A stretch of 64,000 nucleotides of DNA from Escherichia coli (GCA_902500125.1 GCA_902500125.1_4132.1); one strand, 5' to 3'; counted from the first letter of the stretch, positions 49,424 to 59,816 are shown. Notes: generated from the letters alone by a model not told the origin. Translations and numbers: made by a program.

Positions 49424-50086
49424 ATGATGAAATCAAAATTAGGTTTGTTTTATAAAAACTATTTTGTTAAACAACGTAAATTTATAAAAAAATATTTCTC
49501 TGGCGAGAAGTCTAGTCCTATAATCTTTAAAAGACCAAGTTATAATACTTACTTAGCTGGTGCTAAACAGTCTAAGAAATTTATTACTCTTTTACATAAA
49601 AACAAAATTAAAGCTTCTTATGTTGAAACGAGAAGAAACTCATCAATAACTCCTGGTGATTTTATTGAGTACGGATGTTTCAATATTAAGTACAATGATA
49701 ATACATACTTTATGGATATTGATTGTAATACATCCAATCTTTTTAACATTGTAGTAAATCCATTAAAACAATATAATGTTTATGGTGATTCTATTATCAA
49801 ATTAATCAAAAACAAAGATAGCTTTGATTTTGAAATAAATGTTTTAGATGATAATTTTGACGAAGTACCAGTAAACCCTGAAATCTGTGATATTTTAAAC
49901 AGTTTAAAAGGTAGTACCTACACTATATCATCTGATTTAATGTTTCAGTACTCATTAATCCATAAAGATATTGAAAAGTATATTGAATGCTCCAAAATTT
50001 TGAATTATCTTTACGATGAATTTAAAAAGAGTTCTAAAATAACCGCATACACTTTGTACAATATTCCTAAAATGGTGAATCTTTGA
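49424..50086 (+). CDS. hypothetical protein, EExFQxSTV-motif family (divergent)
   Basis: track ORF; SSDLMFQYSLIHKD motif. Confidence 0.55.
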   Translation: MMKSKLGLFYKNYFVKQRKFIKKYFSGEKSSPIIFKRPSYNTYLAGAKQSKKFITLLHKNKIKASYVETRRNSSITPGDFIEYGCFNIKYNDNTYFMDIDCNTSNLFNIVVNPLKQYNVYGDSIIKLIKNKDSFDFEINVLDDNFDEVPVNPEICDILNSLKGSTYTISSDLMFQYSLIHKDIEKYIECSKILNYLYDEFKKSSKITAYTLYNIPKMVNL

Positions 50087-50490
50087 CAAATACAGTACTG
50101 GCAACTCCACCGTCTGTAACATATTGTCCAGTACTGTAAATTTGTATACCATCGGTTAAGTAAGTTCTGTATAAAGTTGCTGTAACATATACGTTATTCA
50201 TATTCATCTCTATTGGTAGTACACATTTGGTATAGGCTGAGACATCTGTTTGTGTACCTATACCTAATTGACCTGCGTTATCGCCTGTGTTATAACCAGT
50301 TGCGTAAACACCTAATGAAGTTATAATATGATTAGAAAAATATGAATAACCCAAACTCTTGAGATTCTCTACTGTACAACGTACCATCTGACATAAGGGC
50401 AAAAACTGTTGTATCAGATGAAGCTATTTTTGTTACAGAAGGTTGTATGTTCTGTTTTGATGATGTGATAATTCTTCGAAAGGGTAGCAT
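50067..50490 (-). pseudogene. degenerate remnant of MLPF/RCC1-like paralog
   Basis: ATG at ~50490 encodes MLPFRRI..FALMSDGTLY then stop after ~52 codons; C-terminal ORF 50067..50402 (other frame, TTG start) matches C-terminus of 58650..59816; own cassette upstream. Confidence 0.5.
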
Positions 50491-50561
50491 TGTATCCTCC
50501 AAATGTAAATCGTTATTATATTTAGGACAAAAAAATGCCAGTACAAAATACTGGCTTTATT
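50491..50561 (-). promoter_or_regulatory. terminator/-10-only promoter/RBS cassette (variant)
   Basis: hairpin GCCAGTATTTTGTACTGGC, T-run, TAAATATAAT box and GGAGG before ATG. Confidence 0.45.
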
Positions 50562-57452: not shown

Positions 57453-58580
57453 TCAAAAAGGTAAATCAATTTGCTTAGTAATAATAGTATCTAACGGTAT
57501 TGAACACAATGAGAAATTCTTTCCACCCGTATTTTTAGGATTATATCCATTCATCCATACATTATTACCTTCGTAAAATGTATTCCAGTATAAAGACCCA
57601 CTATATCGTGTATTCGAATTGAACGATGTAAAATTGAATTCTTGAAATGCTGTAAAATATGGAAGGGAACTTGAACTACTTCCCGTAAATGGGGTATGCC
57701 CAGTTGCTATTAGTTTGTTTGTATCTGCATTAATTAAAAATACAACACTAGTCGAATAGTCCAACGAATCAGGATGATATATATTACTCATATCACCTAT
57801 AGTAAAACCAACATCAAAAACTTTACTATGTGCACCACTACCAGCAAAAGTAGTTCCAGTTGCATATATTTTATTATCAGATGTTATCATTACAAAACCA
57901 ACACCAGAAACAAAACTGCATTTTATATCATAAGATATATCATCAAACAACGGAACAAATGTGGTTGCATCACCCGATGTTGCTTTAACTTGAAAGCTGT
58001 TATTTGAACCTGAACCATATACAGTTCCATCGTTTTTAATCTTAAACAATGTATCGCCAAGGTAACCGCCAAATATATTATCCACATTAGTGTCAAGTAC
58101 AGTCCACGCTGAAACATAATTTTTATGTCCTAAACCTAATGAACCACTTCGATTCCATCCTCTTCCATAAAGTGTTCCGTCTTTCATTAATATAAATGCT
58201 GTATAACCACATAACATTTTTTTAATTTGGGTAACATCTATACCAGTGAAATACACAGCCCAGTCAGTATATCCTTGTTGGAAAGTATTAGAATTCGTGA
58301 ATGCATATGTTGAACCTGAACCATATATTTTATCACCTTTAATAACAACGGAAAACGATCCTAACCATAAGTCATCAACTTCAGTTGTGATTTGTTGAAC
58401 TGCTCCTAACGATACAAACTGTGTACTTAAACCCGCATTATAGTTTGAATCTTCACCGTGTGCATATACAGTGCCATCTTGCATTAGAAACATTTCAAGA
58501 GTGTAACTAACAACACTTTTCTTTATATTATTAACTTCGATTATATTCCCATAATCAAACATTCTAACAAAAGGTAACAT
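57453..58580 (-). CDS. RCC1-like beta-propeller repeat protein with MLPF N-terminal peptide
   Basis: track ORF; MLPFVRMFDYGNI; G.N..G.LG motifs. Confidence 0.7.
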   Translation of the reverse strand: MLPFVRMFDYGNIIEVNNIKKSVVSYTLEMFLMQDGTVYAHGEDSNYNAGLSTQFVSLGAVQQITTEVDDLWLGSFSVVIKGDKIYGSGSTYAFTNSNTFQQGYTDWAVYFTGIDVTQIKKMLCGYTAFILMKDGTLYGRGWNRSGSLGLGHKNYVSAWTVLDTNVDNIFGGYLGDTLFKIKNDGTVYGSGSNNSFQVKATSGDATTFVPLFDDISYDIKCSFVSGVGFVMITSDNKIYATGTTFAGSGAHSKVFDVGFTIGDMSNIYHPDSLDYSTSVVFLINADTNKLIATGHTPFTGSSSSSLPYFTAFQEFNFTSFNSNTRYSGSLYWNTFYEGNNVWMNGYNPKNTGGKNFSLCSIPLDTIITKQIDLPF

Positions 58581-58649
58581 ATTTCCCTCCTTTATTCAAT
58601 ATACTATATTTAATCAAAAAAAGCCAGTACTCAAGTACTGGCATATCAA
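58581..58649 (-). promoter_or_regulatory. terminator/-10-only promoter/RBS cassette
   Basis: same conserved elements. Confidence 0.55.
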
Positions 58650-59816
58650 TTACGAAAAACGTGGATCATCAAGAACAAACACGGTACTACTTGGACCACC
58701 TTGTGTGGTGACAGCACTAGTACTGTAAAGAAAGTTACCATCTGTCATATAAGTTCTACGATTCGTACAAATAACTCTTACTTTATTCATATCGATATCA
58801 GGATTAGGTAATGGACATGAAGTATACACTGATACATCAGTACTTGTTCCTATTCCCAGCGTACCTTCATTTGTGGTTGAACCGCTATTCAACCCACTAG
58901 CATATATACCACTGCTTGTAATAACAAAAGTGGCGTAGAATGGAGAACCTTCACCTATATTTAATTTAGTTCCAGGTGGTTGTCTTGCCGCAGCAACCGC
59001 ACCATATGCTTTCCCACCAGATGTGGCAAGATTACCAAGAGCACCATACTGTTGTTGTCCACCATTATACACTGTGTTAGTGCCATCACTGTTAGTGTGG
59101 ATACCAATAGAATTATAGTTACTGTTGCTATATACTAAAGCGGCATTAGAAGTAACTGTATTTCGTGTATATACTTTATATTGTTGGGTAAAATTACCAC
59201 TAGTGGACGTACCCTGTACAGTTCCAGTGTAGTATATATATCCGTCTGTACCAATGAATGAGTGCATAACACTACCTGCAAAAATTTTTTCTGGAGTAAC
59301 ACCTGACGGTATTGTTGATTGTACAAATCTACCCACTACATTTGTTGTTGTATTATTTCCCAATTGACCGGAGTCACCATAACCACTTGACCATATGGTA
59401 TTGTTCTCAAGAAGAACACTAATTGATAATCTTGATAAAGCTATTTCTTTAACATCACTTTCTAATGTATCAAAAAATGAAGTACAATTTGTCCAAGTGT
59501 TCACTACGCTAGAACTAACACCAATTTGTTTATTATCACCAGAACTATAATAATTCCCATCATATGTTTGTATAAGTATAACAGAACCACCAACCCATAC
59601 TTTATCAACTGAACCAAACGTTCTTGTCCATGTGGTAACTATATCCCCGCTATTATTACCCAATCCAAAGCAACCACTACTATCTACGCCTCGTACATAT
59701 AAATCTCCTGAAGTCATCAGAACTGCACAGAATGATTGTGCACCTTTAACATCTTTAATTGGCTCTGGTTCAGGTGCAACATTTCCATAATCAAACATTC
59801 TTACAAAAGGTAACAT
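58650..59816 (-). CDS. RCC1-like beta-propeller repeat protein with MLPF N-terminal peptide
   Basis: track ORF; MLPFVRMFDYGNV; first gene of minus-strand array in transcription order. Confidence 0.7.
   Translation of the reverse strand: MLPFVRMFDYGNVAPEPEPIKDVKGAQSFCAVLMTSGDLYVRGVDSSGCFGLGNNSGDIVTTWTRTFGSVDKVWVGGSVILIQTYDGNYYSSGDNKQIGVSSSVVNTWTNCTSFFDTLESDVKEIALSRLSISVLLENNTIWSSGYGDSGQLGNNTTTNVVGRFVQSTIPSGVTPEKIFAGSVMHSFIGTDGYIYYTGTVQGTSTSGNFTQQYKVYTRNTVTSNAALVYSNSNYNSIGIHTNSDGTNTVYNGGQQQYGALGNLATSGGKAYGAVAAARQPPGTKLNIGEGSPFYATFVITSSGIYASGLNSGSTTNEGTLGIGTSTDVSVYTSCPLPNPDIDMNKVRVICTNRRTYMTDGNFLYSTSAVTTQGGPSSTVFVLDDPRFS

Follow-up and report, generated by a model that had tools for sequence, protein, structure and literature searches.

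Arrays of several RCC1 genes have been published for the Rak2-like jumbo phages, together with the detection of their products in virions. These genes for 'DNA condensation' proteins (phAPEC6 gp003-010/549/551, 121Q_234-248 and GAP32 gp001) are the same genes as the units described here, which were found in a 64-kb stretch of DNA of a jumbo E. coli phage, hereafter the window. In print they figure as RCC1 paralogs that might, speculatively, organise DNA; nothing is said there of a common N-terminal tag, of Kelch, LamG or glycine-rich neighbours, of a cassette or of tag retention, and the glycine-rich member of the array was left unannotated in phAPEC6. An earlier note, made from the sequence alone, did not recognise the architecture as a described system. 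That judgement fails for the RCC1 arrays and their virion presence, and stands for the shared tag and the cassette mechanism, of which no description was found in the searchable literature.

The internal proteins of T4 (IPI, IPII, IPIII and Alt) likewise carry a short N-terminal peptide on otherwise unrelated, fast-diversifying virion proteins, so that the peptide and not the body marks membership of the set. They are small, whereas the tagged bodies here are large binding domains, and the prohead protease removes their signal, while residues 7-12 of the tag persist in mature virions. The tag is not known to have any sequence similarity to the T4 signal MKTYQEFIAE. In the mobile PeSL (promoter-early stem-loop) cassettes of T4-type phages, a terminator hairpin and a promoter are repeated between the non-essential genes of a hyperplastic region, and the composite serves as a recombination junction for the gain and loss of whole genes; here too the indel junctions lie at cassettes. 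However, PeSLs carry strong sigma-70-like early promoters, whereas the array cassettes lack a -35 and have a late-type TAAATA core, and the array repeat, unlike a PeSL, also reaches into the first 36 coding nucleotides.

The glycine-rich body has its nearest known counterparts in tail appendages of cyanophage Pam3 (tail fiber 7ypx) and mycobacteriophage Bxb1 (gp33 of the wing brush and gp29, the tail spike; 9d93) and in the fold of the ALK glycine-rich domain. Outside the jumbo-phage clade, to which the tag is confined, glycine-rich homologues begin with M[LI]E[LM]L instead. In adenovirus, fibres whose distal heads diverge are held on the penton base by a short conserved peptide at their N-terminus. 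The virus, the sequence and the body architecture are unrelated; the analogy is one of function only, a model for the use of a ~12-residue tag as an anchor.

The array and its bodies

The earlier note had placed eight genes and one remnant head-to-tail on the minus strand, and an ORF check of the window found the RCC1-type and glycine-rich tagged ORFs there, at the coordinates given in the note (Table 1). Two starts were corrected, to the SD-preceded leader ATGs at 53008 and 56570 in place of the longer ORF starts at 53074 and 56588. The minus strand is otherwise almost unused, as had been noticed, with a single ORF of at least 100 aa beyond the array (19897..21051). The remnant, which is conserved in phAPEC6 and G17, bears the variant leader MLPFRRIITSSKQ at 50490; its RCC1 C-terminal fragment lies out of frame after the short ORF and resembles the end of 58650..59816.

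Table 1. Units, tags and regulatory elements of the array (SD, Shine-Dalgarno sequence).
Feature	Coordinates	Strand	Evidence or detail
RCC1-like propeller paralog, first array unit	58650..59816	-	ORF; Pfam WD40_RLD E 3.7e-16; leader
Tag codons of first unit (MLPFVRMFDYGN)	59781..59816	-	leader scan
Cassette copy (GGTAAATATGATATAATGAATAAAGGAGG), without intact upstream hairpin	59822..59848	-	TAAATA late-type element, TATAAT, SD
RCC1-like propeller paralog	57453..58580	-	ORF; RCC1_2 30.6 bits, above gathering score
Tag codons of unit 57453..58580	58545..58580	-	
Intergenic cassette	58586..58642	-	terminator hairpin 58623..58642 with T-run; promoter/SD element 58586..58612
Glycine-rich-domain protein, 245 aa	56642..57379	-	same tag (MLPFGRMIKYGN, 57344..57379)
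Intergenic cassette	57385..57445	-	hairpin 57427..57445; promoter/SD 57385..57411
RCC1-like propeller paralog, 391 aa from leader ATG 56570	55395..56570	-	RCC1 34.4 bits; WD40_RLD E 1.6e-31
Intergenic cassette	56575..56636	-	hairpin 56614..56636; promoter/SD 56575..56601
0-frame part (269 aa) of frameshifted RCC1 paralog	54577..55386	-	SD only, without cassette
Candidate +1 frameshift site and +1-frame continuation	54207..54609	-	
RCC1-like propeller paralog, 369 aa, without cassette	53087..54196	-	structure predicted
RCC1-like propeller paralog, 389 aa from leader ATG 53008	51839..53008	-	ORF; Pfam; leader
Intergenic cassette	53013..53072	-	hairpin 53054..53072; promoter/SD 53013..53039
RCC1-like propeller paralog, 401 aa	50562..51767	-	ORF; RCC1 30.2 bits
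Intergenic cassette	51773..51831	-	hairpin 51813..51831; promoter/SD 51773..51799
Terminator hairpin 3' of last full unit	50537..50555	-	
Remnant: short ORF with variant tag (MLPFRRIITSSKQNIQP, ATG at 50490)	50067..50502	-	

RCC1-type repeats had been proposed from a motif, G-x-N-x-x-G-[QSE]-LG, said to recur every ~50 residues. The propellers themselves are supported by Pfam, AF2 and Foldseek. The recurrence was overstated: the strict motif occurs once in each of three proteins, and it is a looser G-x-N-type motif that repeats, every ~47-53 or ~100-110 residues. All seven RCC1-type bodies, the 269-aa one included, are matched by WD40_RLD (PF25390) at E 3e-11 to 2e-31, below its 150-bit cut-off. 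The gathering score of RCC1 (PF00415) or RCC1_2 (PF13540) is passed by four of the eight tagged proteins (those beginning at 50562, 53087, 55395 and 57453), with 51839, 54577 and 58650 falling below it. phrog_4219, 'regulator of chromosome condensation', matches the RCC1-type bodies at E 1e-66 to 1e-88; the 'chromosome condensation' annotation is transferred by name only, and the pI of the tagged proteins, 4.9-9.3, gives no consistent DNA-binding signal. The dN/dS of 0.10-0.45 against phAPEC6 orthologues indicates that the array bodies are functional.

In the AF2 model of 53087..54196 (pLDDT 91.3, pTM 0.89), some 28 strands form seven groups, as in a seven-bladed propeller, and the best Foldseek matches were UVR8, the HERC2 RLDs, RCC1 and RPGR (TM up to 0.80, E 1e-22; TM 0.78 for UVR8/HERC2/RCC1). 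For the 245-aa glycine-rich protein no Pfam match was found at E up to 1; phrog_4474 matches it at E 9e-69. It has 182 homologues, two of which, P0038 and P0035, score above the gathering threshold of Gly_rich_2 (PF21722). There is a resemblance between this body and the tail-fibre and brush proteins of phages. Among solved structures none was found to match it in sequence, and its predicted model appears to share its fold with glycine-rich phage fibre proteins of known structure, or with the ALK domain, at a low Foldseek TM of 0.28. Both modelled bodies have pLDDT above 90. Residues 1-10 of the propeller model have a pLDDT of 55 and contain a short helix (4-10) outside the propeller, residues 1-6 of the glycine-rich model are below 50, and the tag is predicted to lie outside the folded body.

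Judged by its reading frames, 54577..55386 is a frameshifted full-length paralog, a point missed in the earlier note. It is separated by 8 nt from the stop of the gene upstream and has the same 269-aa form in G17_00080 and in phAPEC6 gp007, which was detected in virions by MS. A candidate +1 frameshift site, TCA CGG A, lies at 54603..54609 on the minus strand and is identical in phAPEC6, G17 and L011. The +1 frame then continues for 132 codons to a stop at 54207..54209, and the fused 392-aa product aligns end to end with the in-frame homologue P0229. Against L011 the +1 frame has 26 synonymous and 20 nonsynonymous differences and no internal stop, as compared with 6:41 and 5:43, with stops, in the other two frames. 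The paralog is a candidate for a conserved +1 frameshift.

A portable N-terminal tag

A six-frame scan of all 64 kb found the leader pattern eight times, always inside the array. For the common leader of ~13 residues reported earlier, residues 1-12 are 80% identical among the window paralogs (85% at the nucleotide level) and residues 13-24 are 18% identical, and the RCC1 bodies average 29% (range 22-39%). By tblastn the tag was found at 474 places in 61 phage records, and 127 distinct tagged proteins gave the consensus M-[LI]-P-F-x-R-[MIL]-h-x-Y-G-N. In CBB gp425-431 it stands on bodies of the Kelch, Laminin_G_3 and GAP32_002-like types; ten consecutive tagged genes, including one for an RCC1+Kelch double propeller, are present in XbC2; in Serratia phage BF it heads RCC1 and two glycine-rich bodies; and GAP32 also has tagged genes. 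Altogether it heads at least five unrelated body types, occurs in at least five genera, and is represented in public data by at least 70 clusters at ≤50% identity.

On this comparison the tag is not a product of local paralogy, given the contrast between tag and body identity in the window and the unrelated bodies in CBB, GAP32, XbC2 and BF. The suggestion that the leader is a portable module is supported, and simple recent tandem duplication in this isolate, which the tandem layout and near-identical cassettes might suggest, is already refuted by the divergent bodies and by the presence of the tag on non-homologous folds across these genera and clusters.

The nucleotide sequence of the leader is itself conserved, with ATGTTACC nearly invariant. 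Across seven phages the codons for Pro3, Phe4, Arg6, Tyr10, Gly11 and Asn12 nevertheless vary synonymously, the residues being constant, and the tag is retained in genes without the DNA cassette. Both observations show the tag to be under selection at the protein level across genera and folds.

Regulatory cassettes and the exchange of units

Most units had been described as lying behind a hairpin, T-run and promoter cassette, with 53087..54196 and 54577..55386 as exceptions, and this was confirmed. The cassette TAAATATAGTATAATGAATAAAGGAGG occurs in six copies at ≤2 mismatches, all in the array (0 expected in shuffles), and the minus strand has six GCCAGTAC..GTACTGGC hairpins with T-runs. The promoter type differs, as proposed, from TTGAC[TA]-N16-18-TATAAT, of which the window has 15 on the plus strand and none on the minus. 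No -35 element was found in the cassettes, and the sigma-70 scan returned no cassette copy.

The conserved element of the cassettes is TAAATA, present as the core of either TTAAATAT or GTAAATAT. T4-type late promoters consist of a TATAAATA-like -10 without a -35 upstream of virion genes, and share this core. In the head-to-baseplate module of phAPEC6, 20 genes were inspected and 12 have (TA)TAAATA upstream, among them those for the MCP gp225c, the prohead protease gp227c and the baseplate wedge gp244; tail genes are preceded by the motif as well, and GTAAATAC precedes tagged genes in GAP32, CBB, XbC2 and BF. From this promoter similarity we infer late timing for the array. TATAAT overlaps TAAATA in the cassette and could be the functional -10 instead.

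The ORF 25849..26814 had been put forward as the sigma factor that reads the array promoters. It does belong to the sigma-70 family, having regions 2, 3 and 4, and CBB encodes a factor of this kind in its early region. It is an unlikely reader, because the cassette promoter is similar to the late motif of T4 type that precedes capsid and tail genes in phAPEC6, a motif which the literature on the clade assigns to a gp55-like late sigma. The reader is probably such a factor, encoded elsewhere in the genome; a late sigma is annotated as phAPEC6 gp237c, in the structural module, and as CBB_244, and lies outside the window.

That the family is diversifying is seen in the rapid turnover of gene content between near-identical phages. 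Units of the window are 89-98% identical to those of phAPEC6 and G17, and the indel breakpoints against these two lie at 50555/51745, 53019/54158, ~55349-55396 and 57445. The unit 50562..51767 is wholly missing from both, the indel (50556..51744) being bounded by hairpin and leader. G17 also lacks the whole of 53087..54196, with a breakpoint at 53019, inside cassette 53013..53072, and homology with both phages stops at 57445, the edge of a hairpin. The gene 55395..56570 is a mosaic allele, with a dS of 0.28 against phAPEC6 compared with 0.02-0.10 for its neighbours. Taken together, these alignments show that whole units are gained, lost and replaced through recombination, which takes place at the repeats of hairpin, cassette or leader.

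Virion presence and the role of the tag

Virion association, also proposed earlier, is borne out by published whole-virion MS. Detected were gp003, 005, 006, 007, 009, 010, 549 and 551 of phAPEC6, at low counts of 1-5 peptides per protein, CBB_548, 549, 551, 552 and 553, and GAP32_001. The peptide report for CBB virions holds LLQYGNK (after MLPFPR) and YANVIVEYATK (after MLPFARIIK), which show that at least tag residues 7-12 stay on the mature proteins; coverage begins at residue 7 because trypsin cuts after R6. A leader acting as a cleaved packaging signal is not supported, given these peptides. No conserved Glu or other fixed cleavage residue was found at the end of the tag, which reads YGN and has K, E, Q, N or D at position 9.

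We lean towards the view that the retained tag is a docking peptide through which exchangeable adhesin modules are fixed to the virion, possibly to its hair-like fibres. The locus would be a fast-changing array of late genes in which every unit could express itself. Each unit would comprise a terminator hairpin, the core of a T4-type late promoter (TAAATA), an SD, the 12 codons of the tag, a short linker rich in proline and a globular, putatively ligand-binding body. The bodies here are RCC1 propellers and one glycine-rich domain like a fibre tip, to which sister genera add Kelch propellers and LamG lectin-like domains. All would plug into one common putative acceptor site on the particle, most likely an external one (the tail, collar, capsid decoration, or the hairs of phAPEC6, 121Q, fEgEco12 and CBB), and the array would be the source of a set of accessory adhesins that can be exchanged. 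Phage domains that bind to head or tail are usually longer than 12 residues, which counts against docking. The authors of the phAPEC6 study also favour an inner-body, DNA-organising role for the RCC1 proteins.

Hair-like fibres have been reported on phAPEC6, CBB, 121Q and fEgEco12. Their link with the tag is loose, since Atu_ph07, also reported to have hairs, is absent from the tag search results, and GAP32 has tagged genes and no reported hairs. A bolder form of the docking view, possible though doubtful, would make MLPFxRMxxYGN the universal plug-in adaptor of an unrecognised display system of Rak2-like jumbo phages, in which one acceptor, perhaps on hairs or whiskers, would take any bearer of the tag, and the cassettes would allow RCC1, Kelch, LamG and glycine-rich heads to be swapped unit by unit to give a combinatorial, fast-evolving adhesion coat, with the conserved frameshift of one unit adding a second product.

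It is unlikely that the tag instead serves capsid targeting, as the signal of the T4 internal proteins does, and sends its bearers into the prohead core, there to form or populate the inner body or to be ejected with the DNA as anti-defence effectors. The internal proteins are indeed a diverse, fast-evolving set sharing only a short targeting sequence, phAPEC6 has an inner-body rod for which its authors propose the RCC1 proteins, and the array is hypervariable, which would be expected of counter-defence cargo. Yet the second half of the tag survives in CBB virions, whereas the T4 signal is removed, and a fixed cleavage residue is lacking. Nor are the proteins uniformly basic, as DNA-packing proteins would be. 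Rigid seven-bladed propellers and a glycine-rich domain would be poor candidates for passage through a tail tube, the latter domain is known only from external fibres, and LamG and Kelch bodies are typical ligand binders.

Recognition of the tag by a phage-encoded factor for assembly, folding or turnover (a chaperone, a ClpS/Clp-type adaptor or a modifying enzyme), with the bodies themselves binding the virion, seems distinctly improbable. The tag is flexible and outside the fold, and Rak2-like phages do encode Clp, ClpS-like and tail-fibre assembly proteins; but this would require a separate virion-binding surface on each of five unrelated folds, the mature particle still carries the tag, and in the data examined no co-varying factor was found. 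The leader is very unlikely to be a passenger, that is, to form the 5' end of a cassette for recombination and expression, conserved as DNA or RNA for the sake of homology or translation initiation and of no function as protein. The 85% identity of the cassette and first 36 nt in the window, the indel breakpoints inside the leader and the near-invariant stretch would agree with this; the synonymous codon changes speak against it, as does the persistence of the leader in cassette-less genes and, in CBB and XbC2, beside unrelated intergenic DNA. Two sequence subtypes of the leader are, moreover, both maintained on several folds.

On this evidence, genes annotated for 'chromosome condensation' in dozens of jumbo phage genomes can be regarded as encoding one class of virion modules that carry a tag; what defines the class is the retained N-terminal peptide, not the fold. 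The tag gives a testable lead on the make-up of hair-like fibres or decorations and on how accessory binding domains are mounted. If it alone suffices for incorporation, it would provide a simple means of displaying foreign proteins on a very large phage, in the way that Hoc, Soc and the capsid targeting sequence serve in T4. The locus also illustrates clearly how regulatory cassettes drive the exchange of genes unit by unit, here with a repeat that takes in a late-type promoter and a coding leader.

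The tag and the folds that carry it

An ORF check confirmed the eight minus-strand genes and one remnant described in the earlier note (see the table). For two of the genes the start is the leader ATG after GGAGG, at 53008 and 56570, and not that of the longer ORF. In a six-frame scan of all 64 kb, the leader pattern, the 12 N-terminal MLPFxRMxKYGN-like residues here called the tag, was found in the eight array genes only. The paralogs are 80% identical over residues 1–12 (85% at the nucleotide level) and 18% identical over residues 13–24. The RCC1 bodies share 22–39% pairwise identity, with a mean of 29%, and RCC1-family Pfam models match all seven of the propeller-type bodies. 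The G-x-N-x-x-G-[QSE]-LG repeat noticed earlier is rare in its strict form, but a degenerate form does recur at ~50 or ~100 residues. The AlphaFold2 model of 53087..54196 is a seven-bladed propeller (pLDDT 91.3, pTM 0.89), with UVR8, the HERC2 RLDs and RCC1 as its best solved structural neighbours. Both structure models, of this propeller and of the glycine-rich protein, place the tag outside the fold at low confidence; in the case of the propeller, tag residues 4–10 form a short helix. A short proline-rich linker usually follows the tag. The leader was also considered as the closing 'velcro' strand of the propeller, and this was rejected given its low-confidence position outside the fold and its presence on non-propeller bodies.

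Searches with tblastn and a 22-residue leader query found 474 tag sites in 61 phage records, with 5–15 sites per Asteriusvirus genome and further matches in Salmonella Munch-like phages, Klebsiella fENko-Kae01, Cronobacter GAP32, Pectobacterium CBB, Serratia BF, and Erwinia, Yersinia and Xanthomonas jumbo phages. CBB has a run of seven genes starting MLPF[SPA][RI]..[EK]Y[GA]N, whose bodies are Kelch propellers, Laminin_G_3 domains and a GAP32_002-like family. Xanthomonas phage XbC2 has a run of ten, with RCC1, Kelch and LamG bodies and several that lack a Pfam match; one of its tagged proteins (688 aa, 359..2425) joins RCC1-like and Kelch propellers in one chain. A second tag subtype, MLPFPIISNT, is carried by six RCC1 and two glycine-rich bodies in BF, and the tag of the window's remnant resembles it. 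The portability that the earlier note had ascribed to the leader is therefore largely borne out, the tag being found on unrelated folds across the clade.

An exhaustive profile search, in which the first-blade columns also drew generic cellular RCC1 proteins, yielded 70 or more tag-bearing clusters at ≤50% identity. A homologue search with a profile of 40-residue N-termini returned seven short fragments only. With these and 143 of the 150 matches listed by the exhaustive search, 150 sequences were inspected; 76 carry the tag, with a bias towards RCC1 bodies. Pooling 127 distinct proteins gave the consensus M-[LI]-P-F-x-R-[MIL]-h-x-Y-G-N-[IV]-x-P. At Pro3, Phe4, Arg6, Tyr10, Gly11 and Asn12 the codons vary synonymously while the residue is constant, and the tag persists where the DNA cassette described below is missing or unrelated. 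Conservation is therefore at the protein level: as judged from codon patterns, selection acts on the tag as a peptide, whatever fold follows it.

The glycine-rich member, 56642..57379, falls in phrog_4474 and is a remote relative of Pfam Gly_rich_2; sequence and Foldseek searches with it were uninformative. Its homologues from other phage lineages (P0005-P0059) start M[LI]E[LM]L, and thus the MLPF tag was either grafted onto the glycine-rich body or replaced another leader there. Glycine-rich and RCC1 genes lie in a single array in both Asteriusvirus and Eneladusvirus; in PVP-SE1 and a Plesiomonas-associated contig the glycine-rich homologue is solitary. The phAPEC6 genome holds an unannotated tagged glycine-rich protein of 244 aa (MLPFGRMVKYGNKIEYKPDGEQ; ~15177..15911, minus strand), inside whose gene the 100-aa 'gp004' is annotated; the protein may be absent from the published MS search database. 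In a 150-kb phage-like contig, L009 (8134..8799 and 10001..10744), a gene near the glycine-rich homologue has a similar start (MNEMMIVSAQQGG versus MIELLAISGTKP). The M[LI]E[LM]L N-terminus may represent an analogous tag system elsewhere.

Cassettes, turnover and a frameshifted paralog

A 27-nt cassette, TAAATATAGTATAATGAATAAAGGAGG, occurs in six copies where none would be expected by chance, and six hairpins, GCCAGTAC-loop-GTACTGGC, followed by T-runs, lie between the array units. Genes 53087 and 54577 lack the cassette; each is preceded by a Shine-Dalgarno sequence alone, which follows immediately on the upstream coding sequence. In GAP32, CBB, XbC2 and BF, GTAAATAC stands ~25–35 nt before the ATG of tagged genes, and the corresponding position of the window cassettes is taken by TTAAATAT or GTAAATAT. 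The motif (TA)TAAATA precedes bona fide phAPEC6 structural genes, namely gp225c (MCP), gp226c, gp228c, gp229c, gp231c, gp232, gp238, gp242, gp244 (baseplate wedge), gp245 and gp247. The CBB paper notes the same motif, as ATAAATA, ahead of structural genes in CBB and GAP32 and ascribes it to a T4 gp55-like sigma factor. On these grounds we read the cassette as a late promoter; an overlapping TATAAT leaves some ambiguity. The sigma factor at 25849..26814, which had been suggested as its reader, is a genuine sigma-70 family protein and the counterpart of the CBB early-region sigma, and is unlikely in that role. The array units are predicted to be self-contained transcription units.

By BLAST, the flank and the shared units are 97–99% identical to phAPEC6 and G17. 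Positions 50556..51744 of the window are absent from both phages and 53020..54157 from G17, which has an extra unit at ~55349-55396; homology to both stops at 57445. All indel junctions fall in the hairpin, the cassette or the leader. Adjacent orthologous genes range in dS from 0.016 to 0.28, a spread that indicates mosaicism, and the dN/dS of the bodies (0.10–0.45) shows purifying selection; the dN/dS control on the flank was left out of account, as an indel had put it out of register. The diversification proposed for the family holds in large part, and on these comparisons the array recombines unit by unit. According to an independent paper, two phages of one species differ strongly in only a few proteins, 'chromosome condensation regulators' among them. 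This cassette-mediated turnover resembles that of the PeSL promoter-stem-loop cassettes of T4-type phages. The array differs in that its promoter is of the late type and its repeat extends into the coding leader.

Only the 0-frame stretch (269 aa) of a full-length RCC1 paralog is encoded by 54577..55386. Its +1 continuation would yield peptides such as ISLTPQSTYLQLTNVSDFEFIQTYSQNPR or GLLYR, and the fused product of 392 aa aligns end to end with an in-frame homologue of 394 aa. The shift site is identical in phAPEC6, G17 and a diverged contig, L011. Compared with L011, synonymous and nonsynonymous changes in the +1 frame number 26 and 20, and this frame is free of internal stops, while the other two frames have ratios of 6:41 and 5:43 and many stops; the downstream part is therefore still evolving as coding sequence. 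The paralog is a candidate for programmed +1 frameshifting. In the 2835 codons of the array CGG occurs once, in the 0 frame at this site, although it could be a by-product of the overlapping GGA.

The array region matches 37 Asteriusvirus-type jumbo phages by megablast against phage genomes (93–98% identity), including G17, Sharanji, 121Q, phAPEC6 and PBECO4, with coverage of the query no higher than 53% in any of them. Annotations under these matches read 'regulator of chromosome condensation', 'putative DNA condensation protein' or 'hypothetical protein'. Elsewhere the window has the appearance of an early region, with coding almost all on the plus strand and a cluster of tRNA genes. Positions 1..50000 hold 15 strong sigma-70-type promoters (TTGAC[TA]-N16-18-TATAAT), every one of them on the plus strand, as would suit an early region. 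The sign of the GC skew switches at ~50 kb, and negative skew persists through 59920..63907 despite plus-strand coding. The small-gene cluster beside the array has equivalents in two comparison genomes, L003 and L008; its conservation in Asteriusvirus, Mimasvirus and Eneladusvirus implies that the position of the locus is conserved. In CBB and BF its genes carry membrane-protein annotations, and the window ORFs have no Pfam match.

Features of the array and its surroundings in the window
Feature	Coordinates	Strand	Remarks
tRNA cluster	8097..14117		five genes (Gly, Ser x2, Asn, Thr)
384-aa ORF	19897..21051	minus	only other sizeable minus-strand ORF outside the array; tag and Pfam match absent
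Conserved cluster of small genes	48583..49381		adjoins the tagged array in opposite orientation
Array	50067..59816	minus	eight genes; remnant at 50067..50502
RCC1-type genes, named by lower coordinate	50562, 51839, 53087, 54577, 55395, 57453, 58650	minus	54577 frameshifted
+1 shift site TCA CGG A	54603..54609	minus	gives access to another 132 RCC1-blade codons, up to 54207
Glycine-rich gene	56642..57379	minus
Small paralogous ORFs	59920..63907	plus	~20 in a long tandem array (59–84 aa); start MNKEHKEFY or MHKEYYT-like, often end ..LLLIFRY

Tagged proteins in the virion

Published mass spectrometry indicates that the earlier proposal of virion association was largely right. Virions of phAPEC6 contain eight RCC1-like proteins (gp003, 005, 006, 007, 009, 010, 549 and 551), with 1–5 peptides each by ESI-MS/MS; five of the seven tagged proteins of CBB (CBB_548, 549, 551, 552 and 553) and GAP32_001 were likewise detected. 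The virion protein sets number ~62 for phAPEC6 and 54 for CBB; homologues of CBB_225/226 are examples of proteins that tag-positive genera have in common and RaK2 lacks. The peptide report in the supplement of the CBB paper includes LLQYGNK, directly after MLPFPR in CBB_553, and YANVIVEYATK, after MLPFARIIK in CBB_548. Tag residues 7–12 are therefore present in purified-virion proteins: the tagged proteins are built into the particle with at least this part retained, and a cleaved signal is unlikely.

We infer that the tag would dock every family member onto one putative acceptor on the particle. An external site is favoured on three grounds: the only body that has relatives of solved structure is akin to proteins of external fibres or brushes; LamG, Kelch and RCC1 domains are of kinds that typically bind ligands; and the particles of these phages bear hair-like fibres and decorations on collar or tail. 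The main rival reading is that the tag would direct proteins to the inside of the head, as does the capsid targeting sequence of T4. The T4 sequence is cleaved away at its end, and no such loss is seen for the tag. Head-internal targeting is weakened by this retention, by the absence of any conserved residue for cleavage, by the spread of pI values and by the kinds of fold involved, though not decisively. Some paralogs have IAPE, VAPE or LPE beyond the tag, but these are not conserved, and a T4-like L/I-x-x-E cleavage site there was rejected.

Arrays of RCC1 genes are already known. The Sharanji paper, the comparative jumbo-phage review and the Eneladusvirus paper do not mention the tag. In the literature searched, the cassette mechanism and the tag, together with the latter's retention and its occurrence on unrelated folds, appear not to have been described. 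The kinship of this system is with N-terminal targeting or anchoring tags and with promoter-terminator shuffling cassettes.
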